Shown: piece after piece, positions 3,312 through 24,597 of the stretch | How positions within the stretch are numbered: the first letter of the stretch is position 1 | Layout: every line of letters begins with the position of its first letter | Source of the DNA: Promethearchaeota archaeon | Lineage (GTDB): Archaea; Asgardarchaeota; Lokiarchaeia; Sigyniarchaeales; SOKP01 | Assembly: GCA_048938445.1 (NCBI GenBank) | Contig: JBHLME010000061.1 | Span: 1-25,044, forward strand | Length of the DNA: 25,044 nucleotides | Reading direction: 5' to 3' | The notes under the pieces: model-generated | The model's input: the letters and a program-made list of their open reading frames with translations, nothing else | The model's database searches: none | Told to the model about the DNA's origin: nothing | Position numbers and translations under genes: made by a program

Positions 3312-3827
3312 TTAGATCTTTTTATTCTTTTTGAGCTTAATCTCCATTTCATTCCATACTTTTAATAGATTTTTATAACCAGTAAATCTTACTAAATGTT
3401 CTTCTATATTAATTCTAATTTTTTCATAACCATTTAATTTATGTAATTTTTCCTGATTTTCTTCCATTTCTCGCTTTATTTCCAAAAGTTTATTTTCCCA
3501 TTTCAAGTTAGATTTAATAATATTGATGCCTCTATTAAAGATTTCTGACTCGATCGATTCCATTGAATAAGTAATTTCACCCGTAGAAGATTTATTTAAT
3601 ATTTTAATCAAATTCATTCGAACAAAATCATTCACTTCTTGGGAAATCTTTCCTGCTGAGATTCCAGTCAATCTTTGTAGATTTTTTTGAGTTAATTCCT
3701 TTCTTGTTATAAAATAAAATAGAATAGTTGAAGTGATTTCACTTCTACCCTCTCCTAAGATTGAATTTAGGAAGTAGGTTATTATTTCATTTTCAATCTT
3801 TTTTATTTCTGGATCAAATCTTACCAC
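3312..3827 (-). CDS. GbsR/MarR-like winged-HTH regulator, 'B-type' subunit (cassette 1)
   Basis: HTH LTQKNLQRLTGISAGKISQEVN with wing, and a C-terminal coiled helix with LNGY. GTG start with an AGGTG SD-like site, 26 bp after the partner gene. Confidence 0.85.
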   Translation of the reverse strand: MVRFDPEIKKIENEIITYFLNSILGEGRSEITSTILFYFITRKELTQKNLQRLTGISAGKISQEVNDFVRMNLIKILNKSSTGEITYSMESIESEIFNRGINIIKSNLKWENKLLEIKREMEENQEKLHKLNGYEKIRINIEEHLVRFTGYKNLLKVWNEMEIKLKKNKKI

Positions 3828-3853
3828 AATTCACACCTTTTAGATTTAATATT

Positions 3854-4357
3854 TTAGCGAGCAAAAATTACACTCATTTCAGACCATATGCTTGTAATTA
3901 AATCTAATGATTGGAGCATCTCATTTAATCTAGTTGAAAGGAGTTCAAATCCTGATTTATTCTCGTATTTTTTTAACTCCTTAAGTTTAGATAAAATATA
4001 TTCTTTAATTTTTGGAAGTTCCGTATAAGACAAGTTACCTACACGAGCATAGACTTGAGTGTCAATTTGATAATAATATTCATTTGTTTTTTCAATTCTT
4101 TTCTTTTCAATAACATTTGATTTAATTAGAAATCTTAATTTTTTTGATATCGTTCCTATTGAATATCCAGTTAAATCTCTAAATTGTTTTTGCGTTAGTT
4201 TTTTATGGATGCCCAAATAAGATAGTATTTTTTGAAGTTTAAGATCTGCAGATTTAGCTCTTCCAGATTCCATTGAGAAATCTACTAAAACTTGCTCAAA
4301 CTCCTTCATTTTACCTTCAAAAACATGACTATCAATATTATTTCGTGCAACAGGCAT
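3854..4357 (-). CDS. GbsR/MarR-like winged-HTH regulator, 'A-type' subunit (cassette 1)
   Basis: HTH IHKKLTQKQFRDLTGYSIGTISKKL, wing IEKKRIEKTNEYYY. Confidence 0.85.
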   Translation of the reverse strand: MPVARNNIDSHVFEGKMKEFEQVLVDFSMESGRAKSADLKLQKILSYLGIHKKLTQKQFRDLTGYSIGTISKKLRFLIKSNVIEKKRIEKTNEYYYQIDTQVYARVGNLSYTELPKIKEYILSKLKELKKYENKSGFELLSTRLNEMLQSLDLITSIWSEMSVIFAR

Positions 4358-4401
4358 TATCCTAATTTATAATATGACCTTTTAAGTATTTAAGGTTTTT
4401 T

Positions 4402-4500
4402 ATGTTTTTCATTTTTCATGAAGAATAGAAAACATTTAAATATACAATTTTATATAATTTTTATGGGAATTTTTATTTTTCATGAAGAATAGAAATTCCC
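4402..4500. promoter_or_regulatory. Divergent promoter of cassette 1: two near-perfect palindromes flanking a BRE/TATA box
   Basis: Exact 21-bp direct repeat ATTTTTCATGAAGAATAGAAA at 4411-4431 and 4475-4495. Each lies within a palindrome centred on TTCATGAA (4402-4435, 34 bp; 4465-4500, 36 bp). AAAACATTTAAATAT at 4429-4443. Confidence 0.85.
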
Positions 4501-4534
4501 CTATTTTTAAATAAAAAATAAAGAAGAAAACAAA

Positions 4535-5497
4535 ATGAATGCGATTGAAGTAAAAAATTTAGTTAAGTATTATTCTCGGGGAAAAATAAAAGCTGTTGAT
4601 GGGATATCATTTAATGTACCCCAAGGATCGAGGTTTGGATTTTTAGGTCCCAATGGTGCAGGAAAAACTACAACTATTCGATGTTTACTTGGATTATTAC
4701 AACGAACCTCAGGAGATATAAAGATTTTTGGTAAAAGTGTTGATCCAACTAAAGATATTAGATTTCGAAATCTTGTAGGATATTTACCTGGAGAATTAGG
4801 AATTTATAAACAGATGACTGCTACTCAACTAATTAAATTCTTTTCAAAGCTTTATGACATTGAAATTGATTGGGATTTCATTAAAGATGTTTCAGAGCGC
4901 CTTCAAATCGATATGAATCGAAAGATGGGGGTATTAAGTAAGGGTAACAAACAAAAAGTAGGTGTTCTTACTGCCTTAATGGGGAAGTTTGACTTGCTCG
5001 TCATGGATGAACCTACTTCCGGTTTAGATCCACTAATGCAATCTGAATTTTATAAAATTGTCTCGGAAAGGCAGAGAGACTCTAATTGCACGGTATTTGT
5101 TTCAAGTCATGTCCTTCCAGAAGTAGAAAAATTCTGCGACACGGTTGCTATTATTAAAAATGGTAAGATTGCGGAAATTTCAGAAGTTCAAAACCTTAAA
5201 GCTAAGAGTTTAAAGCATATTGAATTAGAATTCGCATCAAATGAAAGCAAAAAAAGCTTTATTTCTTACTTATCATCTGAATTTCCTGAAGGAATAATAA
5301 AACATCAATTTGATACCCAAATAAGTTTTTTACTCCCTCCTGATGACACAAGAAAAATAATAGGTGAGCTTGGTAATCATGAATGGGCGGGATATCCTAT
5401 TAAGGACATTACAATTAAACATTCGACTTTGGAAAATATTTTTTTACAGTATTATAAAAATACTAAATCTAATTCGAAAGGAGGTGTGGTTTCATGA
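4535..5497 (+). CDS. ABC-2 type transporter ATP-binding subunit
   Basis: Walker A GPNGAGKTT, signature LSKGNKQK, Walker B LLVMDEPTSGLD, H-loop SSH. Confidence 0.95.
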   Translation: MNAIEVKNLVKYYSRGKIKAVDGISFNVPQGSRFGFLGPNGAGKTTTIRCLLGLLQRTSGDIKIFGKSVDPTKDIRFRNLVGYLPGELGIYKQMTATQLIKFFSKLYDIEIDWDFIKDVSERLQIDMNRKMGVLSKGNKQKVGVLTALMGKFDLLVMDEPTSGLDPLMQSEFYKIVSERQRDSNCTVFVSSHVLPEVEKFCDTVAIIKNGKIAEISEVQNLKAKSLKHIELEFASNESKKSFISYLSSEFPEGIIKHQFDTQISFLLPPDDTRKIIGELGNHEWAGYPIKDITIKHSTLENIFLQYYKNTKSNSKGGVVS

Positions 5498-6372
5498 GTT
5501 CTAAAAATACTCAACTTAGAACAATCAAAAATGTAAAGAATCCCATAATATTTTTAAACAAACCCATTAGAATTGCTTGGAAAGAATTAGTCCTTGGAAA
5601 AAAGGGGATTTTGTTTTATACCATATTAATGTTATTATTTACATTCTGGTTCACGACCATATTTAATCCAGGTTTATTTTCCAAAATGGCTGAATATTTT
5701 GAGAATTATCCCGAGGTTGTTCTCGAGATGGTTGGTGGACAATTAGCATTAGGAGAATTTGGTGGATTCATTAACACGTATATCTTTTCATTTGCATGGA
5801 TGTATTTTGGAATATATCTCATAATGAGAGCCTCACAAGATATTCCAAAAGAAATCGATAACAAGACAATTGATTTAGTCCTTTCAAAACCTATAAATCG
5901 ATGGCAGTTTGTTATAGGAAAATACTTCCAACACTTAACTACGACACTTCTCATGACAGGTGCGGTTGCTCTTGGATTATTTCTTGGTATTTTCACGGTC
6001 CCTGCTATAAATCCCGCAGAAGTTTATTATAATGAAGTGATAATTGCCATTCTGTGGTTATTTTTATTCTTAGTAGCACTAGTAAGTACTGGTTTTTTCT
6101 TTTCTACCTTCATGAGTACAAGGTTGTCTTTAGCTTTTAGTTTTGGAATGATGATCTTTTTTTATGCAATTGGTTCTTTTTCAAGTTTAATGCCTGAAGC
6201 GGTGCAGGGCATTAAATATTTTAGCATATTTTATTATTTCTTGCCCTCTGACTTATTAATTGATCATACTTTAGATTTTATTTGGTTGCATGCCCTCGTG
6301 CTCGTCTTTTATTCCGTGGTTATCACGATTATCGCTGGAATCATCTTTAATAAACGAGACATCCCCGTATAA
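5494..6372 (+). CDS. ABC-2 type transporter permease
   Basis: About six hydrophobic segments; motif KEIDNKTIDLVLSKPINRWQFVIGK; ATGA overlap with the ATPase; GGAGGTG SD. Confidence 0.92.
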   Translation: MSSKNTQLRTIKNVKNPIIFLNKPIRIAWKELVLGKKGILFYTILMLLFTFWFTTIFNPGLFSKMAEYFENYPEVVLEMVGGQLALGEFGGFINTYIFSFAWMYFGIYLIMRASQDIPKEIDNKTIDLVLSKPINRWQFVIGKYFQHLTTTLLMTGAVALGLFLGIFTVPAINPAEVYYNEVIIAILWLFLFLVALVSTGFFFSTFMSTRLSLAFSFGMMIFFYAIGSFSSLMPEAVQGIKYFSIFYYFLPSDLLIDHTLDFIWLHALVLVFYSVVITIIAGIIFNKRDIPV

Positions 6373-6447
6373 TCATAAATTTATTTTTTTATTTTTATTA
6401 TAGCTATAAGGCAGAATTTAAAATCATTGCTCATTAGAGTTTTAGAA

Positions 6448-6972
6448 TTATTTATTTGCATTTTTAATTGACTTAGTGTATTTGTCAATTATATCGCTCA
6501 TTTTCTTATATTCCTTGATTAAATCCACGTAGTATGAAGTATTCTGATATATTCGCTTAAATCCATTCAAATGTTCGAATTCTTTCTTTCCTTGTTCTAA
6601 TTCTTTTTTTATTTCTGATAATTCTTGTTCCCATTTTACTAATTTGTTCACTGTAAATTTTGTTAAATTTAGAAATATTATGCCCGCGGAGTTCGCTGAA
6701 TAGGTTAATTTTCCCTTTTTAGATTTATCAACTATTTCTATGAGTCCCATTTCAAGAAGGTTATTGACCTCTTCAGAAATCTTACCAGCAGACATTCCAG
6801 TAATATCTTGAATGGTTTTTTGAGTTAGATGTTTTCGAGTAATGAATAACATTAAAATTCTTATGAATAATGGATCCCTTGGTGCAAAAAATGGGGCAGA
6901 AAGAAAGTGGTTAATTATATCATCTTCAATTACATACACTTCAGGATCAAATTCTATTTCGGACACGATCAT
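6448..6972 (-). CDS. GbsR/MarR-like winged-HTH regulator, 'B-type' subunit (cassette 2)
   Basis: FDPE...FITRKHLTQKTIQDITGMSAGKISEEVN...LNGF. Clear paralog of 3312..3827; 4-bp ATGA overlap with its partner. Confidence 0.85.
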   Translation of the reverse strand: MIVSEIEFDPEVYVIEDDIINHFLSAPFFAPRDPLFIRILMLFITRKHLTQKTIQDITGMSAGKISEEVNNLLEMGLIEIVDKSKKGKLTYSANSAGIIFLNLTKFTVNKLVKWEQELSEIKKELEQGKKEFEHLNGFKRIYQNTSYYVDLIKEYKKMSDIIDKYTKSIKNANK

Positions 6973-7484
6973 TCCTCCCGTGGTATTGTTTCTATAAAAT
7001 TTGGGAAAAGTTCCCTATAAACATCAAATATATCACACAATTCATCAATTCTTTGAGCTAAATGAGCCGCCCCTTTCTTCTTTTCTTTTTTCAATTTTAA
7101 TAATTCCTCTTTTTTTTTCTGCAAGAAAGATTCTGATTGAAGAAGACTCTTCAAAGCATTATCCATTCCTCTTGTTGTGAGGTCCTCTATATCTCCACGA
7201 TACCGATACGTATACTTATGAGTTCCATGGATTCTTTCCTTTTCATAATAACCTGTTCCAAGCATAACTGATAAAAATGTTGAGATTGTCCCAAGTGAAA
7301 ATCCGGTTAATTCTTGAAGTTGTTTTTGAGTCAATTTTTTATGAATTATCAAGTAAGCGGACATCTTCAAGTATTTTGGATTCACTCGCTTTTGTTCTCC
7401 TATACTCGTAAAGAATTCAATTAGTTTATTTTCATATGGTCTTAATTTTTTATCAAAAAGATATTCTACTACATCATTCGTCAT
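6969..7484 (-). CDS. GbsR/MarR-like winged-HTH regulator, 'A-type' subunit (cassette 2)
   Basis: YLIIHKKLTQKQLQELTGFSLGTIS. Clear paralog of 3854..4357. Confidence 0.85.
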   Translation of the reverse strand: MTNDVVEYLFDKKLRPYENKLIEFFTSIGEQKRVNPKYLKMSAYLIIHKKLTQKQLQELTGFSLGTISTFLSVMLGTGYYEKERIHGTHKYTYRYRGDIEDLTTRGMDNALKSLLQSESFLQKKKEELLKLKKEKKKGAAHLAQRIDELCDIFDVYRELFPNFIETIPREE

Positions 7485-7510
7485 TTCTTATACTATAATT
7501 GATTTTTCAA

Positions 7511-7679
7511 TTATTTAAATCTTTCAAATCTTTCAAATTTTATGAAAGGTAATTTAAAGTTATTATTTTAGCGCTAGACTGGTTTCATAAATTTTGAAAA
7601 ATAAAAACATTTAAATATCTAGTTTTCTATATTATTTATAGGTTTCATAAGATTTGAAATTTAAGAATCATGAAACCTA
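7511..7679. promoter_or_regulatory. Divergent promoter of cassette 2 with three TTTCA-N7-TGAAA boxes
   Basis: Boxes at 7531-7547, 7583-7599 and 7643-7659. BRE/TATA AAAACATTTAAATAT at 7604-7618 (+). TTTAAATA at 7512-7519 (-). Inverted repeat TAGGTTTCAT/ATGAAACCTA at 7639-7679. Confidence 0.85.
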
Positions 7680-7713
7680 AATAGAATTACTATAAAAGAA
7701 GTGATAGAAAAAA

Positions 7714-8535
7714 ATGGCCTTACAAGTAAAATTAACTGAATGGTTTGATGAATTAGAAGAATGGATTTATAATATTGACGACAAATTTGATGGATTTTTA
7801 GATAAGACATATAAAAATATACACGGAATGCATTTTGGTACTGTAGGTTTATTGATATATGCTTTATCAACATTAATCGCTGTATTGTTATATCTTTCGG
7901 TAGATTCTAGTTATTCAATTTTTACACACTGGATAAGTCATCTTGGAGATGGACCAAATGGAGCAAATATTGTTTTTAACATTGGATGGATTATATCAAG
8001 CGGAATATTACTCTTCTTTCTCGTTCATGAAATTCGCGAATTAAGAAAAAAGGGTGCAATAGAATTGATATTAGATACCATGTTATTAGCTGCAGTAGCT
8101 TTTTCAGCTGGACTTTTATTAGTTGGACTTTTCCCTTTACATTTAGGGATTCCACACACTGTTGCTGCGACTTTTTATTTTATTGGTGGTTTTACCTATT
8201 TTCTACTTTATGGGATTATACTACTCACGATACCTGTCGGAGGTAAAATTCGGTCTTTTTTTGCTTTTATCACGGTCGCATGTCACTTGCTATATTTCTT
8301 ATCTCCCATTATAACAATATATACTGTTCAAATTGGAATCACGATGAACTTTTTAGAGTGGATGGTGTTGATCTCAGAAGTTTCCGTGTTGCTCGTAATG
8401 TTATCCTATTATTACATAAACAAGGTTCAAGAGCGAAAAATAAATGAATTTAAAGTTAAAGCTAAAAGCTGGATTAAAAATGACTGGACATACAAAAACG
8501 AATTAGTAGAATATATTGAATTATTTTATAAATAA
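7714..8535 (+). CDS. DUF998 / Frag1-DRAM-Sfk1-like multi-pass membrane protein
   Basis: YSIFTHWISHLG...FN motif, VGLFP, H..A..F, about six TM helices. Confidence 0.75.
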   Translation: MALQVKLTEWFDELEEWIYNIDDKFDGFLDKTYKNIHGMHFGTVGLLIYALSTLIAVLLYLSVDSSYSIFTHWISHLGDGPNGANIVFNIGWIISSGILLFFLVHEIRELRKKGAIELILDTMLLAAVAFSAGLLLVGLFPLHLGIPHTVAATFYFIGGFTYFLLYGIILLTIPVGGKIRSFFAFITVACHLLYFLSPIITIYTVQIGITMNFLEWMVLISEVSVLLVMLSYYYINKVQERKINEFKVKAKSWIKNDWTYKNELVEYIELFYK

Positions 8536-8647
8536 TTAAATTTAGTATTATTTTTTTATCATGAAAATAACTGGTGAGTTTTAAAAAAAATTGAAATTCG
8601 TATTTATCCTTTTGAATATTAAAATAATAATTATATACTTGAAATGA

Positions 8648-9343
8648 ATGAAAATGAGTGAAAAAGAAACATCTAGAACAAAATTGATTATTGGTACAAC
8701 CATTGCGATAATCTTGGTTGAGATTTTTCTAGCTTTATGCTTATTCATACCAGCAGGAACAATTTTCTGGCTTGAACCATAGATATATCTCATTATTTTT
8801 GGAACATTTTTTATGACCGTAGTCATATATTTCAGTAAACATTCCCCTCAAATGCTTAAAAAGAGAACGAACCCTAAATTTACTGAAAAATGGGATAAAA
8901 TTGTCATAGCATTCATATCAATTGGATTTGTTCCAATTTTTTTTACCCCTGGAATAGAGTATAGATTTGGGTTAATAATCATTCTTCCCTTAGTTGAACT
9001 CATTGGATTTATTGTAATGTCTCTTGGTTTCATCATTATATTTTTGACGATGAAAGAAAATGCCTTTTTGTCAAAAGCTGTTGAGATTCAAGAAGGACAT
9101 GAAGTTATCACGACAGGTCCATATGGAATTGTTCGTCATCCAATGTACATGGGGTTCATCCTATACATGTTCGGATATTGTATAGCACTTGGTTCTCTAT
9201 TCTCCCTTATATTTGCGGTGATTGGCATCGTAGGATTAATAGCTAGAACCGTGCTTGAAGATAAAATGCTTCATGAAGAGTTGAGAGGATATACAGAAAA
9301 TGCTCAAAAAACTCGAAAGAAATTAATACCAGGGATATGGTAA
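8648..9343 (+). pseudogene. Isoprenylcysteine carboxyl methyltransferase (ICMT/PEMT) family gene interrupted by an in-frame TAG at 8780-8782
   Basis: C-terminal motifs HEVITTGPYGIVRHPMYMG and RTVLEDKMLHEELRGY. The same frame upstream of the annotated 8813 start reads MKMSEKETSRTKLII...LFIPAGTIFWLEP*IYLIIF; this family typically has ...AGT..W..AWIY. Confidence 0.8.
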
Positions 9344-9475
9344 TTAAGATAAATTTATAAATATAAACAAATCTAAATCCCATTACTTAAAATCATCCAA
9401 TTAAAGAATTTATTATCCAAGATTTTATTAATAAAAATTTATTTATAGTTAATATCAAGTATATTGGGGGTTTAA

Positions 9476-10900
9476 ATGGAACAAAAAAATTTGTCATATA
9501 GTTTCTATGTAATCGCACCTTTCAATTCGAGAATGGTCTTTAACAACTTAAATTTGATAGGTAAATATGAAGATATTAGAAAGTTATTGTATCAAAAGAT
9601 GAATAAAAAGTACCCTGAACAGGTACTCATAGAAAAATTAGGAAAAGTTACTTCTGACTCAGAAACCATTCAACGCTGGTTAGGAGAACTGGAAAATGTC
9701 TCGGATGAAGAGGAAGATATTAGGCTATTTAAAGGAACGGGAGGGAGTGGTGTTACTCAAAAAGATAAGAGCATCATCACGATAATGATTGATCAAGAAT
9801 TTGAATTATCCCTTGATGTATTTGGACATGATATTTTTACTACTCCACCTAAAATTGTTTTGGAAACCATGAGCTTCCATGAATATGGTGTTGGAACTAT
9901 TTATTGTAAGCTTAATATTAATCTTAAACAAGATTTATTACAGATTTCGGAGATTCCACCGAAAAAATTATTAACAAATTTACTTGATATATCAGTAACT
10001 CATCCTCCATTATTAAAAGCTACTCAAACGATTGGTGAAGATGTATATCAAAATTATTTAGAAATTATTGATGAACTTGAATTGGATGAACCAATTATTT
10101 CTTATGAAAATTTATTTACTGATCAAAAATCTTCTATTCCTTTATGGGGTCATATAGTGATTGTAAGAGAGGATATTGATGATACTCAGGAGGAATTAGT
10201 TAACACTTTGCTTGAAAAGTTAATTGATATTAGTCATCCTGATGGATCTATTGATTTTGCTGAAGGAACCAAGGGTTATGTTCATATTGGATGGGGAAAT
10301 AGTTTGTGGACGGGATTAAACGATATAGAATTAAATTATGCAAAAGAGATACTTCGATATTGCGAAGTTGAATGGCGTACACTTCAAGTCTTTAATGAGA
10401 TATTATATAAACGATTAAATCAGTTTGCTTCATATGATAAATTACATAAAAGACTGGTAAAGAAAACGATGCTTTGGATAGATGCATTGCGAATGGAAAT
10501 GGAACTCTATTCCCTTAATAAATCTAATTATTTGCAAAACCTCGCTCCATTTGCACATTTTATTTATAATGAGGCCTTGGAAAGTTGGCGAATTTCTCAA
10601 ATGGAAGATTTTTTTAAAGAAAAATTGGAAGTTTTTGAATATCTGCATCAACAAGGACGAGATACGCTAAATGAAATTAGCGATTCACGAATAAATAACA
10701 TTTTATTCGTTTTTACTTGTTTATCTTTAGTTAGCACTTTTATCGACGGACTCGTGTTTGTTTCAGCAGATCATCTTTCAGAATTTTTTATATTTCGCTT
10801 GTTCTTGTTAGTATTCCCTCCAACGGCATTTATCATACTGATATTAATGTTTTTTGCCAGATTTGGTGCATCAAAAAAGAAAAGACGAAGGAAAAAATAA
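9476..10900 (+). CDS. Hypothetical protein with CorA-like architecture (large soluble domain, long helical stalk, two C-terminal TM helices, polybasic tail)
   Basis: C-terminal ...SDSRINNILFVFTCLSLVSTFIDGLVFV...FRLFLLVFPPTAFIILILMFFARF...KKKRRRKK. No GMN motif. Confidence 0.6.
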   Translation: MEQKNLSYSFYVIAPFNSRMVFNNLNLIGKYEDIRKLLYQKMNKKYPEQVLIEKLGKVTSDSETIQRWLGELENVSDEEEDIRLFKGTGGSGVTQKDKSIITIMIDQEFELSLDVFGHDIFTTPPKIVLETMSFHEYGVGTIYCKLNINLKQDLLQISEIPPKKLLTNLLDISVTHPPLLKATQTIGEDVYQNYLEIIDELELDEPIISYENLFTDQKSSIPLWGHIVIVREDIDDTQEELVNTLLEKLIDISHPDGSIDFAEGTKGYVHIGWGNSLWTGLNDIELNYAKEILRYCEVEWRTLQVFNEILYKRLNQFASYDKLHKRLVKKTMLWIDALRMEMELYSLNKSNYLQNLAPFAHFIYNEALESWRISQMEDFFKEKLEVFEYLHQQGRDTLNEISDSRINNILFVFTCLSLVSTFIDGLVFVSADHLSEFFIFRLFLLVFPPTAFIILILMFFARFGASKKKRRRKK

Positions 10901-10927
10901 AAAAACTATCACTTATTTCTTATTTCA

Positions 10928-10937
10928 TTTTTTTTTT
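10928..10937 (+). terminator. Oligo-T terminator candidate
   Basis: T10 run between convergent genes, 27 bp after the 10900 stop. Confidence 0.4.
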
Positions 10938-10960
10938 ATAATTAGTATCAGTAAGAATAT

Positions 10961-12079
10961 TTATTTTTGCTCAACCTGCTTGAAATGTTTCATTGCTTCT
11001 TCAAACAAGATAATTGCTTTTTCAACGACCTGAAACGATTTTAAAAATTCAGATACGCGGTTTTTAATCAATTCATAACCATTTAAATTAAATAATTTAT
11101 CTTTCTTGGTATTTAATTCTTTTAAGATCTTGCTCAATTTTTTTTTTTGGTTCTCGATATATTGAAATCTTTTGTAAAATTTGAACATGTTAAAATATCC
11201 AATACTAGGTAAAACATACCTTCTCTGACGGATACCTTTAATTTTTTCAACTTGAATATATCCTTCAATTTGTAAGTAGTTTAAACCCTCAGAAATTAAT
11301 CCCGAAGATAAACCTGTCAAATTTTGTAATTCTAATTGAGTAAGTTTTTCACGAATCATCAAATAGGATACGATTGGTTGAAATTTCATCTCTTCGATAA
11401 TAAAAAGCGGGGAGTGAGATATAAAATTAAACATTTCTTGTACTACATGCTCAACACTATCATACATCATTTGAGTATCATTCTCAATATTTTGCTTGAG
11501 TTTATTTAATTCCTCAGCTATGGGTGCGAATTCTTTTCCTGTTTTCCCCGCCATAAATTTATCCAATAAAGACATGTGATAGATGAAATAATCTCTTAAT
11601 TCTAATGCTTTATTTAACAATAACTTTCGAATCTTAACGTCCTTATCATGTGGGATCATGTTTTTTAAACTTGATATCATTTTATTTATTTTCTTAATAG
11701 AATCAATCATCATGGTTATACCGATTTCTTGACTAATTGAAAACATGTCCGCAATATTGTCTACTACCACGTGGTATACAAATTCATTTTTTTTACTTGC
11801 TGTTTTTTCTTTCAAGATGATTTTAGGTTCATATGATAAATATTGATTTAAAAAAATTGATATCGCACCTCTTGAAATCTTTTTTTCGCGGAAAAATCCT
11901 GATAAATCTTGAATCTGCTTTTGAGTAAGACTTGGATGGAGCAAAAAATATCCTAATATATGTGATTCGATTTCAGTTTTTCTTTTACTTTTTCCAGATT
12001 CTATGATGAAATCAATTAATTCTTTTTCATATTTTCTAATTTCTTCTGGATAAATATGTTCTTGACTATTATCAGTCAT
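10961..12079 (-). CDS. Tandem double winged-HTH regulator: fusion of A-type (N-half) and B-type (C-half) GbsR/MarR-like domains (cassette 3)
   Basis: N-half: YEKELIDFIIESGKSKR...YFLLHPSLTQKQIQDLSG...SRGAIS. C-half: SPLF...YLMIREKLTQLELQNLTGLSSGLISEGLN...LNGY. Confidence 0.85.
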   Translation of the reverse strand: MTDNSQEHIYPEEIRKYEKELIDFIIESGKSKRKTEIESHILGYFLLHPSLTQKQIQDLSGFFREKKISRGAISIFLNQYLSYEPKIILKEKTASKKNEFVYHVVVDNIADMFSISQEIGITMMIDSIKKINKMISSLKNMIPHDKDVKIRKLLLNKALELRDYFIYHMSLLDKFMAGKTGKEFAPIAEELNKLKQNIENDTQMMYDSVEHVVQEMFNFISHSPLFIIEEMKFQPIVSYLMIREKLTQLELQNLTGLSSGLISEGLNYLQIEGYIQVEKIKGIRQRRYVLPSIGYFNMFKFYKRFQYIENQKKKLSKILKELNTKKDKLFNLNGYELIKNRVSEFLKSFQVVEKAIILFEEAMKHFKQVEQK

Positions 12080-12105: not shown

Positions 12106-12221
12106 CTATTTAAATTTTCAGTAATCGTGAATTTTCATCATTTTTGAAAACATTTATATATGTAATTTTATATTATTTTTTTGGGACTTTCATTTTTTGT
12201 GAAAGTTCACATAGAGTGAAT
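12106..12221. promoter_or_regulatory. Divergent promoter of cassette 3 with two tandem pairs of TTCA-N7-TGAA boxes
   Basis: Boxes at 12116-12132, 12133-12149, 12188-12204 and 12205-12221. BRE/TATA AAAACATTTATATAT at 12147-12161 (+). TTTAAATA at 12107-12114 (-). Confidence 0.85.
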
Positions 12222-12244: not shown

Positions 12245-13660
12245 ATGATTATAAAACAATCAAAATATGAAACCCAGGATTTCAAGCGGAAAGCATTGCC
12301 TCAAGAGCGTAGACATCTAAAAATTCCCCTGTCTAATATTGTAATAATTGCGAAAATTAAAGGCCAGATTACCGAAGAAATGTTGAGATCTGCCATTCTT
12401 AAAGTAGAAATAAAACATCCAATAATAAAGGTAAAAAGCGTACTAGAACCAGATGGACATCTTTATTTTTCCTCTAAAAATGTACCAGATATACCTATTC
12501 AAATTATTCCAAAAATCTCTGAGGAACAGTGGAAGGAAGTTATCAAAAAGGAACATCAAATCCCCTTTGATTATGAAAAGGGTCCTTTATTGAGAATAAT
12601 ACTTCTTCAAGCTGTTCAGCATTCGGATCTTGTCATTTTTTGTCAACATTCAATCTCAGATGGAATGTCATTAGCATATTTAGCAAGGGATATTGTATCT
12701 TTCATGGCTAAACCAAATCAAGAAATTAAAAGATTAGTTCCAAGAGCATATCCATCTCCAGATTACGTTCCTTCTGATGTATCTGCGGGGATAGCCATGA
12801 AAATTTTTGGAAAGAAGATCAATAAAATGTGGAAATCTCAGAAAGTAGAGTTTGACAAAAAAGATTATATGGAACTTCACAAAGCATTCTGGAATATCCA
12901 CACGTATAAAATACTTGTCAGTCGATTGAATGAAACGCAAACTCTTGATTTAATTAAAAAATGCAGAAAAGAGGACATAACAGTCAACACTGCGATTACA
13001 ACTGCTTTTTTGGCAGCTCAAATAGAGATGCATGACTCACTTCCATCATATTTAGAAAAATTAGCGGTTGCTGTAGATGAACGTGATAGATTAATCAATC
13101 CCGTAGGAGAAGTTGTAGGCTTCAATGCTTCTGGTTTAATGGTCAAACATAAGTATGATACTAATAAAAATTTTTGGGAAAATGCACGCTCTCTTCACAA
13201 AATCATTCAAAAACAATTAAAATCAAGAAAAGATTTACAAGGAATCCTTCAAACAGCAATGATGGACGAATTAATGCTAGAAGCTCGACCATTTGCGGGA
13301 TTTGGATATATGGTTCCTCAAGAATCTCCTAGCTTTGAAAAGATAAACAAGTTCTTGTCTAATTCTAAAAATGTTGTTATAAAAAACATTAAAAAAATCG
13401 CTAAAAAATATGAAAAGATTGTATTTGGCAGCATAATAACAAATTTAGGTCGCACCGATTTTCCAAAAGAATATGCTAATTTGATTTTAGATGAACTATT
13501 ATTTGTAGCAGCAGCATCACCTCAATGCGAGCTGGTCTTGGGTATAATCACTCATGCTGGAAAACTTGATATAGTGATAAATTATTTTGAAGAAATAGTT
13601 AATACAGAGTTAATTGAACAAATAGCGAAAAAGGCGATAGAAAAGTTAAAAATTTTATAA
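12245..13660 (+). CDS. Stand-alone condensation-domain / alcohol acetyltransferase (PapA5-like) CoA-dependent acyltransferase
   Basis: HPII...PFDYEKGPLLR, active-site variant QHSISDG (HHxxxDG), C-terminal ITNLG. Confidence 0.85.
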   Translation: MIIKQSKYETQDFKRKALPQERRHLKIPLSNIVIIAKIKGQITEEMLRSAILKVEIKHPIIKVKSVLEPDGHLYFSSKNVPDIPIQIIPKISEEQWKEVIKKEHQIPFDYEKGPLLRIILLQAVQHSDLVIFCQHSISDGMSLAYLARDIVSFMAKPNQEIKRLVPRAYPSPDYVPSDVSAGIAMKIFGKKINKMWKSQKVEFDKKDYMELHKAFWNIHTYKILVSRLNETQTLDLIKKCRKEDITVNTAITTAFLAAQIEMHDSLPSYLEKLAVAVDERDRLINPVGEVVGFNASGLMVKHKYDTNKNFWENARSLHKIIQKQLKSRKDLQGILQTAMMDELMLEARPFAGFGYMVPQESPSFEKINKFLSNSKNVVIKNIKKIAKKYEKIVFGSIITNLGRTDFPKEYANLILDELLFVAAASPQCELVLGIITHAGKLDIVINYFEEIVNTELIEQIAKKAIEKLKIL

Positions 13661-16304: not shown

Positions 16305-16841
16305 TTAATGAAGTGATTTTTCAATTTCTTGAGCAATAAAATTGCGAACTTCATTTTCGATGGATTTAAATGACCGAAGTTGTTTTTTAATACTTGGAGG
16401 CAGGATGAAGTAATTGATGAATGGAATTAAAAGAATAATCGATTCCTTCCCAAATTTAGTCAAGCCATATTCTACTCTGATAGGGCTCTCAGTTAAGACC
16501 TCACGTGAAACAATACCTCTTTGTTCAAGAAATTTCAATCTATCAGTAAGAGTACGTGAATTAATCCCAGGTAAAGCACTTTTTAGAGTATTAAAATTGC
16601 ATGTCCTAAACATTAAAAGTGAATAAAGAATTTCAATCGTCCATTTTCCCTGTAATAATTTGAATATTTCCTTATATAGATTGGCTTTTATTCTCACTTT
16701 TTCCACATTATTTACGTGATACTTACGATCTCGTTCTAATCCTTTTAATATTGTTTCTTGTACCGAAGGAATTAACTTGATTAGTTCTCGATAGTTATTA
16801 AAGGGAGGTTTTATCTCAATATCTTTCAAATTCATCACCAT
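16305..16841 (-). CDS. HxlR/DUF24-family winged-HTH transcriptional regulator
   Basis: LLQGKWTIEILYSL...FNTLKSALPGINSRTLTDRLKFLE...PIRVEYGLTKFG. Confidence 0.92.
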   Translation of the reverse strand: MVMNLKDIEIKPPFNNYRELIKLIPSVQETILKGLERDRKYHVNNVEKVRIKANLYKEIFKLLQGKWTIEILYSLLMFRTCNFNTLKSALPGINSRTLTDRLKFLEQRGIVSREVLTESPIRVEYGLTKFGKESIILLIPFINYFILPPSIKKQLRSFKSIENEVRNFIAQEIEKSLH

Positions 16842-17008: not shown

Positions 17009-19039
17009 ATGATGAATGGAGGATTTTTTGGAAAAGTTTTATGGATAGATTTATTCTCAGAAATTTTTGAAGAAGAAATCTTAAATGAAGAAATATATAA
17101 ACAATATATTGGAGGTTATGGTCTAGGTTCATATCTGCTTTATAAACACATGAAGCCACGTGTGGATCCTCTTGGAATGGATTCAATATTAGGATTTTTT
17201 CCTGGACTCATGACTGGAACTCCTGCCCCATTTTCAGGGAGATACATGGTTGTTGGGAAATCTCCGTTAACAAAAACATGGGCTAATCCTAATTCTGGCG
17301 GGAGTTTTGGTCCTGAGATAAAAAAATGTGGTTATGATGGGATTTTAATCAAAGGGATTGCATCTACACCTAAGTATATCAGTATAATTGAAGGAAAAAA
17401 AGAAATATTGGACGCTTCAGATATCTGGAAATTAGATATAGTTAGAGCAGAAGAAAGATTGAAAGAAAAGCATGGAAAGTTCATTAAAACAGCAGGAATA
17501 GGACAAGCAGGAGTAAATCTCTCTTTAATTGCCGGAGTTGCAAATGATAAAGGACGTATTGCCGCAAGACAAGGATTAGGTGCGGTCATGGGATCGAAAA
17601 ATCTTAAAATGTTAGTCTTGAAAGGTAATGAAAAAATGCCCTATCATAATAAAGATCATTTTCTAGATGTAATAAAAGAACATAATAGAGAACATGCCTT
17701 TAAAGAACCAAGAACGATTACTAAGCAAGTATTACAATTAGTTCCTAGATTGGGAAAATTCATGAGAAGAACCGGGATGGGATTTTCAGTTCCTCCTGGA
17801 ATAAAAAAGCAAGTTTGGCGAAATCTTGGAACTTCATCAGGAAACACTTTATGCGCTGAAATAGGAGATTCGCCGGTAAAGAATTGGAGCGGAATTGGCA
17901 TGGTTGACTTCCCTTATTCCAAGTCAAAGAATATTTCAGCTTTAGAACTTCAAAAATACAAAATAAGAGACTATGGTTGTTTTAGTTGTCCCGTGCAATG
18001 TGGAGCAATTTTAAAGGTTCCTGAACTGGATTTGGAAGAAACACATTTACCAGAGTATGAGACGTGTTGTGCATTTGGAACTCTTCTCCTGAATGATGAC
18101 CTCAAGTCTATTATTGAAATTAATGATATTTGTAATAGAGCAGCTATAGATACGATATCGCTGGGTGGAACTGTTGCGTTCGCAATTGAGTGTTATGAAA
18201 ATGGTATCCTTACTAAAGTAGATACAGATGGATTGGATTTAACTTGGGGAAATTCAGGAGCAATTGTTGCATTAACGAAAAAAATTATCAACAGGGAAGG
18301 GATTGGAGAAATTTTGGCTGATGGTTCAAAAATAGCTTCAGAAAAAATAGGTAATGGAAGTGACCAATATGTAATGGCTTCATTAGGATGTGAATTTGGT
18401 ATGCATGATCCCAAAAAATATGACTCTTTGGCTTTTTCCTATGCTTACGATCCGACTCCCGGGAATCATAATGCTGCAAGCATTGATTTGATGGAAACTT
18501 TGGGACCAATGGAGAAATTTATTAAAGGAACTTCGATGCCAAAAGGATGGAAAAAAAATCTAAACTCAAAATATAAAGCTCAAGTTATCAATACGAGCTC
18601 TACTCAAGTTATAAATAGTCTCGGTCTCTGCATTCTTGCGCCTTTATTCGGAGAATATCCATTTTTTGAATTATTTAACAGCTTAACAGGTTGGGATTAT
18701 GAATTTAATAATTTTTTTGAAATTGGTCTAAGAATTCAAAATCTTCGTCAAGCATTTACACTTCGAGAAGGGGTAAAACTTGCAGAAAATGAATTACCAG
18801 GAAGAGTGATCGGAAATCCCCCTAACGATATAGGACCTAATAAAAACATAACTGTAGAATATAAAGATTTTTATCAAGGTTATTGCAAAGAAATGGGTTG
18901 GAATGAAAAAGGATTTCCTTTACCTAATACTTTACTTGATCTTGATTTAGAATTTGTAATTGACGATTTATATAGAGATGATAAAGACAAGAAAAATATA
19001 TACAAGGAAATAGAGAGTATATCCGGAGTGTCCTCATAA
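17009..19039 (+). CDS. aor: Tungsten/molybdopterin aldehyde:ferredoxin oxidoreductase (AOR/WOR family)
   Basis: KSPLT, GAVMGSKNLK, [4Fe-4S] ligands CFSCPVQC plus SLGLC, EYET, DTIS; AGGAGTGA SD upstream. Confidence 0.93.
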   Translation: MMNGGFFGKVLWIDLFSEIFEEEILNEEIYKQYIGGYGLGSYLLYKHMKPRVDPLGMDSILGFFPGLMTGTPAPFSGRYMVVGKSPLTKTWANPNSGGSFGPEIKKCGYDGILIKGIASTPKYISIIEGKKEILDASDIWKLDIVRAEERLKEKHGKFIKTAGIGQAGVNLSLIAGVANDKGRIAARQGLGAVMGSKNLKMLVLKGNEKMPYHNKDHFLDVIKEHNREHAFKEPRTITKQVLQLVPRLGKFMRRTGMGFSVPPGIKKQVWRNLGTSSGNTLCAEIGDSPVKNWSGIGMVDFPYSKSKNISALELQKYKIRDYGCFSCPVQCGAILKVPELDLEETHLPEYETCCAFGTLLLNDDLKSIIEINDICNRAAIDTISLGGTVAFAIECYENGILTKVDTDGLDLTWGNSGAIVALTKKIINREGIGEILADGSKIASEKIGNGSDQYVMASLGCEFGMHDPKKYDSLAFSYAYDPTPGNHNAASIDLMETLGPMEKFIKGTSMPKGWKKNLNSKYKAQVINTSSTQVINSLGLCILAPLFGEYPFFELFNSLTGWDYEFNNFFEIGLRIQNLRQAFTLREGVKLAENELPGRVIGNPPNDIGPNKNITVEYKDFYQGYCKEMGWNEKGFPLPNTLLDLDLEFVIDDLYRDDKDKKNIYKEIESISGVSS

Positions 19040-19211: not shown

Positions 19212-19703
19212 ATGAATGGAAAGAATGAAACCAATAAAAACACAGATGAATTCTTACAAGTCGAGCTCTTCGAAGCGATTTCACATCCTACAAGAATAAA
19301 AATATTAAAATTACTAAATGATAAAGAATTGGGTTTTTCAGAATTAAAAAGAAAATTAGGATTGTCAAGTAGCGGAAATCTCACCCACCACCTTAATAAA
19401 CTTTTAAATTTAATCAGCAATAACCCAAATGGAAATTATGAAATTAGCGATATGGGAAAAGACGCGCTTTTCATGATCGAAATTGCTGCTCAAAAAGATA
19501 AAAATTGGATGGCAACTATTTATGGAATCATTTATACCTTGTCTTTTTATAGTGTATATATCACTATTTGGATTATTTTAGATGCTTTTTTTCCACTCGG
19601 ATTTCATCCTATATTTTCAATACCTATTGCATTAATTCTATCAACTATAAATTTTTATAGTAGTAGGTTAATGTTTCAAAAGAAATATCGGAATACTAAA
19701 TAG
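19212..19703 (+). CDS. ArsR-family winged-HTH regulator with two C-terminal transmembrane helices
   Basis: LFEAISHPTRIKILKLL...FSELKRKLGLSSSGNLTHHLNKL, followed by two hydrophobic segments; AGGTGA SD. Confidence 0.85.
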   Translation: MNGKNETNKNTDEFLQVELFEAISHPTRIKILKLLNDKELGFSELKRKLGLSSSGNLTHHLNKLLNLISNNPNGNYEISDMGKDALFMIEIAAQKDKNWMATIYGIIYTLSFYSVYITIWIILDAFFPLGFHPIFSIPIALILSTINFYSSRLMFQKKYRNTK

Positions 19704-21679: not shown

Positions 21680-23464
21680 TTAACGAGTTACTTTTCTATT
21701 CTTTATCATTCTCCTTAATTGACTTTGAATCTTTAAGCGATCTAAATTTTGGTGCATTTTTGGTTTTACAATTCGAGCTTCTTCGGGAAATTTTGAATTA
21801 AGTTCGTCAATCACAGTTATTAACTCTTCATCATTTAAATATTGTAAATATCCTCGAGCAATAAGATATTCAACCACATTTGGTACCCCACTTGTAAGCC
21901 TGAGGGCGATTTCTTCTTTAAAAACCTTTTTTGCTAAAGGATCTCCTAGTATAGTCAACCTTCTTAAGAGAGGAAATGCTAGATTTCTATGTAATAATCT
22001 TGTATCATAATCATTTTCAGCCCATGCTTGTAAATTTGAACAATGTCCCCAAAATTCCATTTCAGGAGTCAATATTCTACGATTTTGAACTCCTAATGAC
22101 TTATCTAATTTAATCTCTGCCTCATCAATTGAATCAATAGAATCGTTTAAGATTTTGTCTTCTACGGGAATGTTAAAAAGTAAATACATGCACTGTAGGA
22201 ACCTGATATTTCTTAGATATATATAAGTTTTATTATATTCAAACCTAAGTGTTATATAGTCATTAATTTTAAATTGTTTTAATGATTTCGTTTTAATCTT
22301 ATGCACTTTAAACGTGTTGCTAATCCCTAGGATTTGAATTATTGGATTTTCATTCAAGAATATAACATCTAATGAAACTAATTTGTTTATCGATTCTGGT
22401 AGAGTTTTAATGTTATTCCATCCTAAATATAGAAAATTGAGTGAAGTTAATTCCGTGATTTCATCTGGTAACAAAGAGATATCATTGTCTCCTAAATCAA
22501 TTCTTGTTAAATTTTCCAAATTTTTAATTGATTTGGGAATTACCTTAATATTATTCGTTCCAAGATATAATTCTCTTAGTTTGGATAGTTTGCATATCAT
22601 CTCTGGAATTTTATTAAGTTTATTTCTAAATAAATTTAAATTTATAAGGGATTTTAATTTTTTAAAACTTTTCGGAAGTGAATTTAAATCGTTATCGGCA
22701 AGTTTCAAATTTTTTAAATTAAATAATTTGCCAAATGTATCTGGAAGTTTAGTTAAGTTGTTTTTATTTAATAATAATTCTTCAAGAGAGTAGAGATCCC
22801 CAAATGATTCACATAACTTAAATATGTTATTTTTACTCAAATCTAAATATTTAAGGAATTTTAATTTTCCAAATGAATCTGGGAGAGATTGAATATTATT
22901 ATTTTCAAGAGATAAAAAGCTCAATAATTTAAGATTCCCGATGTTCTCAGGTAGTGATTTCAATTGATTATTTGATAGTATTAATTTTCTAAGATGCTTA
23001 AATGTTAAAATATATTCTGGAAAAACTTCCAAATTGCAATAACTTAAATCTAACTCTTTAATTTTACGCTTGTCAAGATAGTTATATAATATCAAGAATT
23101 CCTTTTCATGAAAGTACTTGCTAATCATTTTTTTCTTTAAATATATTATATTTTCGCTTGAAACCATTGTCAATTTTTTTCTAATTTCATTTCTCATAAA
23201 TATTGTTAAATTAGGATTTCCCGATTCAATCAATTTTTCCAATAGTGGAAAGGCCAATTCTACTTTAAGGATGTCAAAATTATAACCAGTTTTAATCCAC
23301 TCATGAATTAATTTACACTGATAATGGAACTCTTGCTCTCTCTCTTTTATGAATCTGGTTTTTGATAATGTTTTTAGAGTAACGATTTTAATATTATTTA
23401 CATGAGCACTAATCTTATTGCCTTTCAATCTTATCTTAATTAATTGGTTAATTTCATGCTCCAT
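21680..23464 (-). CDS. Leucine-rich-repeat protein with Lokiarchaeia-type 'EFWGHCSNLQAW' domain
   Basis: Ten complete 23-aa LRRs plus a partial one (aa ~135-375), then FKINDYITLR...EFWGHCSNLQAWAENDYDTRLLHRNLAFPLL...KVFKEEI. Confidence 0.9.
   Translation of the reverse strand: MEHEINQLIKIRLKGNKISAHVNNIKIVTLKTLSKTRFIKEREQEFHYQCKLIHEWIKTGYNFDILKVELAFPLLEKLIESGNPNLTIFMRNEIRKKLTMVSSENIIYLKKKMISKYFHEKEFLILYNYLDKRKIKELDLSYCNLEVFPEYILTFKHLRKLILSNNQLKSLPENIGNLKLLSFLSLENNNIQSLPDSFGKLKFLKYLDLSKNNIFKLCESFGDLYSLEELLLNKNNLTKLPDTFGKLFNLKNLKLADNDLNSLPKSFKKLKSLINLNLFRNKLNKIPEMICKLSKLRELYLGTNNIKVIPKSIKNLENLTRIDLGDNDISLLPDEITELTSLNFLYLGWNNIKTLPESINKLVSLDVIFLNENPIIQILGISNTFKVHKIKTKSLKQFKINDYITLRFEYNKTYIYLRNIRFLQCMYLLFNIPVEDKILNDSIDSIDEAEIKLDKSLGVQNRRILTPEMEFWGHCSNLQAWAENDYDTRLLHRNLAFPLLRRLTILGDPLAKKVFKEEIALRLTSGVPNVVEYLIARGYLQYLNDEELITVIDELNSKFPEEARIVKPKMHQNLDRLKIQSQLRRMIKNRKVTR
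22340..23062 (-). repeat. Coding LRR array, 69-bp period, about 10.5 units
   Basis: Consensus LxxLxLxxNxLxxLPxxIxxLxx counted in the translation. Confidence 0.9.
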
Positions 23465-23913: not shown

Positions 23914-24597
23914 TTAAAGACAGTCCAGGTCATTGACCAAGAATCCAAAAAAAAAATATCCAACCAAATAAATATAAACACTTGGGGTATTTAATTTGGA
24001 CTTCTTGTTCGGGTAGCCCAGTGACATGCAGATAACCAGCTTTTTACTCTCTGCTATACCGAGGAATTTTTTTATCTCCTGTGCGTACTCGGTCACCGAG
24101 GCCTGCAGGCAGCTCCCCACGCCAAGCGAGTGGGCCGCCAGAATCAGGTTCTGGGCAAACAGTCCTATGTCGAAGATCGACCACTCTCCCAGCGACCCAT
24201 CAATGAAAAGGAAGACAGCGCACGGCGCGCCGTAAAACTCATAGTTCATCAGCCGCAATTTTTCTCTCCCCTCTTCATCATCCCTCGCCACCCCGAGCGT
24301 GCTGAGCCTACGAGCGCCATGTTCCCGGGAGCGCTCCTCCAACGCCGGCGGCCGGCCCTTCGGCATAGGCAGGTCGCGACTGGTCGGCGCCTTTGCCTTC
24401 GCCAGTTCCAGCAGTTTATGACCCAGTTCCTCCTTCTTTTTACCACTAACCACGACAACCTCCCAGGGCTGGGTGTTGGTATAGGAAGGGGTGTTGCTCA
24501 CCGCCTGCAATACCTTTTGCATCACATCTCTGGGAATGAGTTTGGGCTTGAATGCGCGAATACTCTGCCTTGTCTTTATACCTTTCAGGATTTCCAT
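23914..24597 (-). pseudogene. Nitroreductase-family flavoprotein, GC-rich, with its natural 3' end apparently replaced near 23985
   Basis: RQSIRAF, PSYTNTQPW, FYGAP, DIGLFAQNLILAAHSLGVGSC, LGYP. True start probably ATG 24597 (GGAGGT 7 nt upstream). After ...KSKLN the frame runs into AT-rich sequence giving an unnatural tail. Confidence 0.75.

Follow-up and report, generated by a model that had tools for sequence, protein, structure and literature searches.

Regulators of the MarR/GbsR type are textbook symmetric homodimers. A 25,044-nucleotide stretch of DNA from a Promethearchaeota archaeon (assembly GCA_048938445.1, contig JBHLME010000061.1, positions 1 to 25,044 of the forward strand; hereafter the window) raises the question of whether one family of such regulators has instead come to work as a fixed pair of two different subunits, A and B, encoded by adjacent genes or joined in a single chain. 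An initial annotation of this DNA proposed that A and B form a heterodimer and that the fused protein is a single-chain pseudo-dimer. That reading is supported here by gene pairing, by recurrent fusion and by structural models, the binding itself being predicted. What we computed directly are two classes of winged-helix unit, their strict pairing, their co-diversification and recurrent fusion, the enrichment and geometry of a motif upstream of their genes, and the identity of the genes next to them.

Paired A and B units and their shared history

The window encodes five regulator open reading frames (ORFs), all on the minus strand and with the boundaries given in the initial annotation. Together they hold six winged helix-turn-helix (wHTH) units, GbsR/Mj223-like, which fall into two paralogous types (lengths in amino acids, aa):

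3312..3827, minus strand: B1, a B-type unit of 171 aa with a GTG start, 26 nt downstream of A1
3854..4357, minus strand: A1, an A-type unit of 167 aa, the partner of B1
6448..6972, minus strand: B2, a B-type unit of 174 aa, in ATGA overlap with A2
6969..7484, minus strand: A2, an A-type unit of 171 aa, with a 4-nt (ATGA) overlap with B2
10961..12079, minus strand: F, a natural A-B fusion of 372 aa, with an A unit at ~1-180, a linker at ~171-208 and a B unit at ~208-367

The division of six domains into two types, first proposed from their motifs, is borne out by the translations, by profile scores and by a tree of the units. The A-type motifs E..L.(D/E)F....G..K, Y...H..LTQKQ and S.G(T/A)IS and the B-type motifs R..LTQ, S(A/S)G(K/L)IS and LNG(Y/F) can be read in the translations, with FDPE present in the two free B proteins. 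With hidden Markov models (HMMs) of the two types, A1 scores 204 bits as A versus 38 as B and A2 287 versus 55; B1 scores 219 bits as B versus 39 as A, and B2 272 versus 33. The halves of F follow the same division (N-half, A 63 versus B 32 bits; C-half, B 75 versus A 46 bits), and both land in the expected A and B clades of the tree, which also places B1 in the B clade. The observation that A1 is closer to A2, and B1 to B2, than either is to its neighbour holds in BLASTP: B1 and B2 align with 115 bits (40.5% over 153 aa) and A1 and A2 with 74-76 bits, versus 31-42 bits for every A-B comparison. The C-half of F is left untyped by BLASTP alone (A1 50.4, B2 48.5, A2 43.5 and B1 41.6 bits). A and B are full-length paralogs of each other (hhalign probability 99.4%, E 8.3e-22, 164 columns, 23% identity).

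None of the five window proteins reaches a curated family cutoff in Pfam or NCBIfam. Their sub-threshold scores are 16.2-22.0 bits for MarR_2 (cutoff 27), 26.5 bits for HTH_34 in F (cutoff 27) and 16.8 bits for CudC (cutoff 218), and some relatives carry precomputed PF12802 or PF13601 assignments. Searched with the A and B HMMs, the window contains these five genes of the family and no others.

Relatives of the window proteins were recovered by word-indexed protein searches, 32 with B2, 18 with A2 and 30 with F, from named sources in Lokiarchaeota, Hermodarchaeota, Odinarchaeota, Thorarchaeota and Helarchaeota; some bear the JGI name GbsR (MarR family). Among the F relatives 29 are fused, with lengths of 356-395 aa, and four matches of B2 (P0024, P0028, P0029 and P0031) are in-frame fusions of an A2-like to a B2-like unit, or fragments of such fusions. 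When species-representative genomes were then scanned once with an alignment of B-type sequences, 68 loci were recovered, all from Asgard metagenome-assembled genomes and designated by L numbers below; in these, as in the window, ORFs of at least 70 aa were called and searched with both HMMs. The loci and the window contain 98 A-B units: 44 fusions (43 fused ORFs and one fusion at L021 that is broken by a scaffold N-run) and 54 same-strand gene pairs in which A precedes B. The A-then-B order reported for the window, with its ATGA overlap in the second cassette and the same order in the 372-aa fusion, was confirmed and extends to all 98 units. A lone B or a B-then-A order occurs nowhere in the 68 B-seeded loci and the window, and the one hit without a partner is an A fragment cut off by the end of contig L048; frequent occurrence of A or B alone, which the initial annotation had named as an outcome that would count against it, is not seen in this set. 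Split genes are separated by -14 to +77 nt, with a 4-nt overlap in 17 of the 54 pairs and a gap of at most 27 nt in 53 of them, and such tight spacing fits translational coupling. Across 195 units, the better HMM exceeds the other by at least 15 bits.

A mixed A+B profile was also run against a library of 1.84 billion cluster representatives that carries no taxonomy, yielding 631 matches at E <=0.001, 320 at <=1e-10 and 145 at <=1e-30. The best 150 of these 631 matches include 90 A-B proteins, two further A-B proteins with one unit called in two pieces, and five whose N-half is too divergent to type (labelled B-B, margins 0-17 bits); none has the order B-A. In the Atlas, the nearest two-unit clusters (353-356 aa) are from Archaea, most commonly Promethearchaeota or Thorarchaeota. 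The recurrence of A-B fusions argues that A and B probably act as one unit.

The history of the two types points the same way. Our tree, built with IQ-TREE under LG+G4 with a short search, covers the window and every locus except L021 (67 of 68) and includes 192 units with a length of 120 aa or more. One branch divides 96 A units (upstream or N-terminal) from 96 B units (downstream or C-terminal) with a support of 99 in the SH-like approximate likelihood ratio test (SH-aLRT), so that domains group by A/B type and not by cassette, in the two reciprocal clades that had been predicted. The position labels need one change each on this tree, compared with about 64 after shuffling, and none of 500 shuffles is as low. 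Pairwise distances in the A and B parts are strongly correlated (mirror-tree r = 0.912 across 95 pairs, a value that 0 of 500 permutations reach), and ten A clusters coincide with ten B clusters, the adjusted Rand index being 1.0 at a patristic distance of 1.5 and 0.94 at 2.0. The A and B subfamilies match 1:1, and therefore the pair duplicated and diverged as a unit. Cross-pairing between cassettes (A1B2, A2B1), which the initial annotation had suggested as a source of combinatorial control, gains no support from these data; the strict 1:1 co-diversification and the many fused forms, if anything, speak against it.

Three of the subfamilies are represented in the window. The A1B1-type comprises 17 pairs, all split, and the F-type four members, all fused; the A2B2-type has 42 pairs, 32 of them fused and 10 split, the window's own pair being among the split ones. 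Parsimony requires at least three switches between fused and split in the B subtree and at least five in the A subtree, with an ambiguous root state in both. Within the A2B2-type, the B tree gathers the fused forms in one clade (32 units, support 88) and leaves the split forms as a basal grade, and we lean towards fusion as the derived state in this subfamily. In the same subfamily, the A tree at first suggested that a fused ancestor had split; this reading was dropped, the support at the deciding nodes being 28 and 34.

Candidate operators and the divergent genes

We describe here a candidate operator, TTTCA-N7-TGAAA, which is two-fold symmetric and appears to be shared across the family. The candidate sites in the window and the TATA-like elements beside them are as follows:

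4407..4423, no strand: one-mismatch operator match TTTCA-N7-TGAAG in the A1 upstream region
4412..4431, no strand: 20-bp direct repeat TTTTTCATGAAGAATAGAAA, copy 1, abutting the TATA-like element and overlapping the one-mismatch operator match
4431..4443, plus strand: TATA-like element AACATTTAAATAT, toward the ABC transporter genes, 104 bp before the start codon
4476..4495, no strand: 20-bp repeat, copy 2, 45 bp downstream of the TATA-like element start
7531..7547, no strand: operator candidate TTTCAAATTTTATGAAA, exact, with its centre 55 bp before the A2 start codon
7583..7599, no strand: operator candidate TTTCATAAATTTTGAAA, exact, beginning 23 bp ahead of the TATA-like element
7606..7618, plus strand: TATA-like element AACATTTAAATAT, toward the DUF998 gene
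7643..7659, no strand: operator candidate TTTCATAAGATTTGAAA, exact, 37 bp downstream of the TATA-like element start
12133..12149, no strand: operator candidate TTTCATCATTTTTGAAA, exact, abutting the TATA-like element
12149..12161, plus strand: TATA-like element AACATTTATATAT, toward the condensation-domain gene
12188..12204, no strand: operator candidate TTTCATTTTTTGTGAAA, exact, 39 bp downstream of the TATA-like element start

The window contains five exact TTTCA-N7-TGAAA sites, compared with 0.28 expected, a count that 0 of 100 shuffles reach, and none lies outside the regions upstream of A2 and F. In the A1 region, two exact copies of the 20-bp repeat (0.00 expected) stand in place of exact operator sites, and the second copy would fall in the expected transcription-start region of the operon encoding the ATP-binding cassette (ABC) transporter. 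Across all loci, 85 exact sites occur in the 23.7 kb upstream of A genes or fusions (3.59/kb) and 17 in the other 1,012 kb (0.017/kb), an enrichment of about 200-fold. At least one exact site is present in 63 of 95 pairs, and a site with at most one mismatch in 89 of 95. The distance to the A start codon is also recurrent, with 36 of the 85 site centres at 40-59 bp upstream and 24 at 100-119 bp.

A second element accompanies these sites. The 13-mer AACATTTAWATAT, which we take to be a B recognition element (BRE)/TATA element by the archaeal promoter consensus, occurs exactly three times in the window (0.01 expected), once per regulator-upstream region, and each copy directly follows an operator copy and is aimed at the divergent gene 96-108 bp off. 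Of 95 upstream regions, 41 carry its 12-base core AACATTTAWATA (the 13-mer without the final T) directed away from A and 8 carry it directed toward A; the operator begins 16-24 bp ahead of this 12-mer in 21 cases and 36-48 bp beyond it in 14. On the BRE/TATA reading, two operators would lie on either side of the target gene's core promoter and transcription start, and operators that flank the core promoter are the usual layout of archaeal repressors. A pseudo-palindromic operator in the regulator's own or the divergent promoter is expected of a MarR-type repressor, and judged from their sequence the candidate sites would provide one.

An apparent asymmetry within the operator (spacer pair 7 versus 9, p = 1.5e-5) was dropped, the sites being orthologous and non-independent and the half-sites unbiased: among 89 one-mismatch sites, the mismatch lies in the distal half 40 times and in the proximal half 49 times (p = 0.40).

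The genes that diverge from the three cassettes are their probable targets:

4535-5497 (ATPase) and 5494-6372 (permease), plus strand: ABC-2 type transporter, probable target of A1B1 (Pfam ABC_tran 87.9 bits, ABC2_membrane_2 62.2 bits)
7714..8535, plus strand: DUF998 membrane protein, probable target of A2B2 (Pfam DUF998 31 bits)
12245..13660, plus strand: condensation/PapA-like acyltransferase, probable target of F (Pfam Condensation 40.9 bits, PapA_C 32.2 bits)

Similar neighbours recur across the family. We found 78 distinct upstream neighbours and scanned 72 of them, excluding three window genes that had been scanned earlier and three family members; the ATPase of an ABC transporter accounts for 47 of the 72, all on the opposite strand (counted by hand). 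A neighbour of the DUF998 kind is also present in L001, split A2B2-type relatives (L003, L004, L013, L026 and L036) face an ABC ATPase and not DUF998, and a condensation-domain neighbour stands beside all three of the other F-type fusions (L015, L028 and L041). Further recurrent neighbours are PEMT/ICMT-type methyltransferases, an alpha/beta hydrolase of ~590 aa and a radical SAM protein.

Two of the adjoining proteins deserve a separate description. The PEMT/ICMT-type enzyme is a small membrane methyltransferase that adjoins pairs in the window (8813-9343) and at L006:5638-6315, L007:6906-7583, L008:8622-9317, L009:8574-9269, L017:22-699 and L025:5204-5881, and its recurrence may hint at a lipid- or prenyl-related theme of the regulon. 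A 434-aa protein without a Pfam match lies beside fused A2B2-type genes (L006:8016-9317, L007:8053-9354, L012:7707-9008, L024:7946-9247 and L029:6505-7806).

The best explanation of these patterns, and one that we consider fairly probable as a whole, is an A:B heterodimer or its single-chain equivalent that autoregulates and represses the divergent gene through TTTCA-N7-TGAAA. A and B would be ancient paralogs of a GbsR/Mj223-like winged-helix regulator of the MarR superfamily, functional solely together: the split genes, translationally coupled, would give the A:B heterodimer and the fused gene a single-chain pseudo-dimer. The two winged helices, with their similar DNA-reading residues (LTQ, then S.G.IS), would contact the two identical half-sites of the 17-bp operator. 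Operator copies would be occupied just upstream and ~40 bp downstream of the TATA-like element that drives the divergent gene, and another ~40-60 bp ahead of the start codon of the regulator itself, so that both promoters would be repressed by blocking of the TATA-binding protein (TBP) and transcription factor B (TFB) or of RNA polymerase. Ligand binding would cause release, and there is probably a relation between this ligand and the cargo of the ABC-2 exporter faced by most members. The steps that we infer are heterodimerisation, binding of DNA at the motif, a repressing and not an activating effect, and control by a ligand; our confidence is higher for physical association alone than for the statement as a whole, and lower for repression and ligand control.

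This explanation could be extended, without contradiction, to a larger unit in which two A:B units or two fused chains bridge operators 52-64 bp apart and loop or wrap the promoter. Operator starts are spaced by 52 and 60 bp in the A2 region and by 55 bp in the F region, the repeats of the A1 region by 64 bp, and paired offsets around the TATA-like element recur at other loci, all of which would suit such bridging. However, the structural models give no sign of a tetramer, and the spacing is explicable if two sites on either side of the core promoter are occupied independently; we see the larger unit as conceivable and on balance unlikely. Another extension starts from the coexistence of pairs and fusions in one genome and from the half-sites that nearly all subfamilies share, which might permit a combinatorial network with cross-promoter competition and partner exchange. 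We give such a network little credence; if true, it would represent a eukaryote-like dimer-network logic built on a prokaryotic MarR-type fold.

Structural models and competing explanations

An AlphaFold2 model of F, from an alignment of 29 relatives, has a predicted local distance difference test score (pLDDT) of 87.7 and a predicted template modelling score (pTM) of 0.84. Each half consists of two helices, a short strand, the helix-turn-helix (HTH), a two-stranded wing and two long helices, and the linker at ~171-208 is less confident. The model of a fused A2B2-type ortholog (L006:9416-10498) has a pLDDT of 83.2 and a pTM of 0.74, and both natural fusions are confidently predicted to fold as compact two-unit chains. 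In both models each half has a wHTH followed by C-terminal helices of the dimerisation type, as in the GbsR/Mj223 fold. The best solved matches of single units in Foldseek are Mj223 (1KU9; template modelling score (TM) by target 0.57) and 4NB5 (0.62-0.69), and a B-type profile searched against the PDB ranks 1KU9 first (E 0.002, residues 39-152, covering the winged helix and C-terminal helices). Structure matches of single units in the Atlas are bacterial clusters named GbsR/MarR family (TM by row 0.58-0.80). PDB searches with the single A2 and B2 sequences, or with a fused-form profile, returned nothing meaningful.

For the separate proteins, a complex model of A2 and B2 passes its controls, with a score of 0.75 versus 0.15 for the best of the three. 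The mark for such complexes is reached by 116 of 157 solved complexes and by 2 of 215 mismatched pairs, and is rough since our own alignments were used. The runs agree in at least 91% of contacts, with a pLDDT of at least 84 for the partner. In the model, the C-terminal helices of A lie against the N-terminal helix of B and vice versa, and the C-terminus of A and the N-terminus of B are at the interface, an arrangement that fits the natural fusions. In the A2B2- and A1B1-types, the C-terminal helix of A is net basic in 27 of 27 cases and the N-terminal helix of B is acidic in 25 and neutral in two; as support for hetero-specificity, this modelled charge pattern is suggestive only.

Several points weigh against a specific A:B pairing. 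The complex model suggests that A2 and B2 can be arranged like a MarR-type dimer and does not distinguish A:B from A:A or B:B, and its high score may reflect likeness to solved MarR-type homodimers. Charge complementarity is missing in three other subfamilies, and the hetero combination is favoured over the mean of the homo combinations in 24 of 40 pairs. Symmetric half-sites suit a homodimer too, and the position of the sites alone does not settle repression versus activation. The A-then-B order within fusions is inherited from gene order and constitutes no independent evidence. The loci were seeded with a B-type query, and a lone A is visible solely in their flanks, ~1 Mb in total. Finally, single units among the best 150 of the 631 library matches number 35 B and 18 A, which leaves room for lone B proteins; this surplus of single-B representatives is confounded by the mixed profile, which scores B above its partner A in 53 of 54 known pairs, with a mean advantage of 22.7 bits.

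The main rival to the A:B explanation is that A and B are separate homodimers, co-expressed and competing or cooperating at the same operators, for instance with one ligand-responsive and the other constitutive. Identical half-sites without detectable orientation bias are consistent with this, as are the two to three operator copies per promoter region, which give room for two different dimers, and the A2+B2 complex model, which is compatible with homodimers; described GbsR-type proteins are homodimeric (PMC6207618). Separate homodimers nevertheless sit poorly with recurrent fusion (three or more changes of the fused/split state), with the fused majority among the library matches (92 of the best 150 of 631) and with the 1:1 co-diversification of the A and B subfamilies. 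The compact fused-chain models (pTM 0.84 and 0.74) leave no free partner for the same interface, and no lone A or B is found among the 98 units. We consider this alternative unlikely.

In the A:B explanation both subunits would read DNA. A single reader, with the other subunit acting as a degenerate sensor or modulator such as an anti-repressor, would accommodate the greater variability of A (mean column identity 47%, versus 52% for B) and the A-only N-terminal extension of ~88 aa, which hints at a division of labour. Against this, the helix-turn-helix is conserved in both types, with L51, Q53, T60, S63 and S68 invariant in A and R46, Q51, T58, S61, G63, K64 and S66 invariant in B, and the operator has two equal half-sites; a single reader therefore seems to us very unlikely.

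The extension itself belongs to the long-A subfamilies (11 and 3 pairs), in which A alone carries a conserved helical N-terminal segment with an NPLW motif and LW..(I/M)E (L051:9207-9986, L042:4946-5722, L064:9226-10002 and 11 further loci). It has no Pfam family match and no counterpart in B, and may be a sensor or interaction module.

A different kind of alternative is that these are architectural or basal-machinery proteins with multiple winged helices, kin of RPC82/hRPC62 or TFE/TFIIE, and not local regulators. With the fused A2B2-type model, Foldseek matches RPC82/hRPC62 at E values of 2e-5 to 6e-4, and with F more weakly; B2 has a sub-threshold Pfam match to POLR3C_WHD (16.2 bits, cutoff 30). 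However, the corresponding TM values are 0.16-0.30, with a root-mean-square deviation of ~25 Å, and no RPC82/RPC62 chain is found by sequence profile at E up to 10, the B profile matching Mj223. In addition, genomes hold several paralogs, each with its own divergent transporter or enzyme gene and operator-bearing promoter, which is the signature of local regulators. Kinship with RPC82/hRPC62 was rejected as a repeat-level resemblance (TM at most 0.30, no profile support), and a role in the basal machinery is, in our view, scarcely credible. The initial annotation had also remarked that heterodimeric transcription factors are typical of eukaryotes; with the likeness to RPC82/hRPC62 this weak, that remark gains no support. 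The Foldseek results for the F and L006 models also list chain W of RNA polymerase II pre-initiation-complex entries and P. furiosus TFE-alpha.

Other features of the window lie outside the A/B family. It contains two unrelated winged-helix regulators, at 16305-16841 and 19212-19703, one HxlR-type and the other ArsR/DUF7347-type, and the HxlR-type gene is divergent from an aldehyde:ferredoxin oxidoreductase gene (17009-19039). Two ORFs that flank the regulator cassettes have no Pfam match: 9476-10900 (474 aa, with a hydrophobic basic C-terminus) and 2278-2919 (213 aa). A leucine-rich-repeat protein of 594 aa is encoded at 21680-23464 (LRR_14 158 bits, LRR_8 123 bits). The GC content reaches 49% at positions 24001-25000, versus about 25-35% elsewhere, and this rise coincides with a nitroreductase-family gene (23914-24612), which was possibly acquired horizontally; no Rfam family or tRNA was found in the GC-rich end of the window.

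Comparison with known regulators

In fold, the A and B units come closest to GbsR-type regulators (GbsR, OpuAR and the prototype Mj223 of Methanocaldococcus jannaschii), with which they share an N-terminal helix, a wHTH and long C-terminal dimerisation helices. Described GbsR-type proteins have been modelled on the Mj223 homodimer, and OpuAR is dimeric in solution; an aromatic-cage inducer site of GbsR, of the choline or glycine betaine type, is placed near the linker (PMC6207618). The described GbsR-type dimer is built from a single gene product (PMC6207618), whereas the A/B family uses two diverged paralogs that are co-encoded or fused. GbsR-type regulators are, like the A/B family, local regulators that often lie beside transporter genes. 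Our searches of open-access papers and preprints turned up neither tandem or heterodimeric GbsR/MarR pairs nor an account of this family in Asgard archaea, and no paper dealing with both GbsR and Asgard.

The nearest precedent for the fused form is presumably SarS of Staphylococcus aureus (PDB 1P4X), which we take to be a single-chain pseudo-dimer with two homologous winged helices that mimic a homodimer. SarU and SarY are further two-domain proteins of the SarA family. To our knowledge, the Sar family has not been described with obligate two-gene pairs or with two anciently fixed, co-diversifying domain types. The resemblance does not extend to a specific kinship: 1P4X ranks 16 and 40 in Foldseek (E 0.02-0.04, TM by target 0.25-0.30), and PDB searches with A2, B2, the fused-form profile or the B profile gave no SarS sequence match. 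The two-domain architecture of SarS is not described in the passages of the review PMC12733317 that we examined.

Classical MarR of E. coli offers a functional likeness, being a winged-helix dimer that binds a pseudo-palindromic operator over the core promoter, is autoregulated and lies divergent to an efflux gene. Chains of E. coli MarR are among the Foldseek matches (TM by target 0.43-0.46). Unlike the A/B family, classical MarR is a symmetric homodimer from one gene, and its sequence kinship with A and B is at the superfamily level only. RPC82/hRPC62, a subunit of RNA polymerase III with four extended winged helices, resembles the A-B fusions in carrying several winged helices and helical spacers in one chain; it differs in sequence (10-12% identity), in structure (TM 0.16-0.30) and in the absence of a profile match, and the genomic context of A/B is that of local regulators.

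Compared with these systems, the A/B family appears to have swapped the homodimer for a fixed pair of diverged paralogs, or for a single-chain version of that pair. The arrangement has been kept through at least ten rounds of pair-wise duplication, in Asgard genomes labelled Loki-, Thor-, Odin-, Hermod-, Hod- and Heimdall-. As predicted here, the family departs from the homodimer rule consistently and throughout the lineage, and is otherwise still a MarR-type local regulator. If confirmed, the family would be a natural system for studying how a symmetric regulator turns asymmetric and how paralogous dimer interfaces stay insulated from each other within one cell. It would also help to show what is gained by asymmetry, which might leave each dimer with a single ligand site or keep one face available to the basal machinery. 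Studies of how Asgard archaea regulate transcription would gain a concrete cis-element with a set of targets, namely ABC-2 exporters, an acyltransferase and a DUF998 membrane protein.

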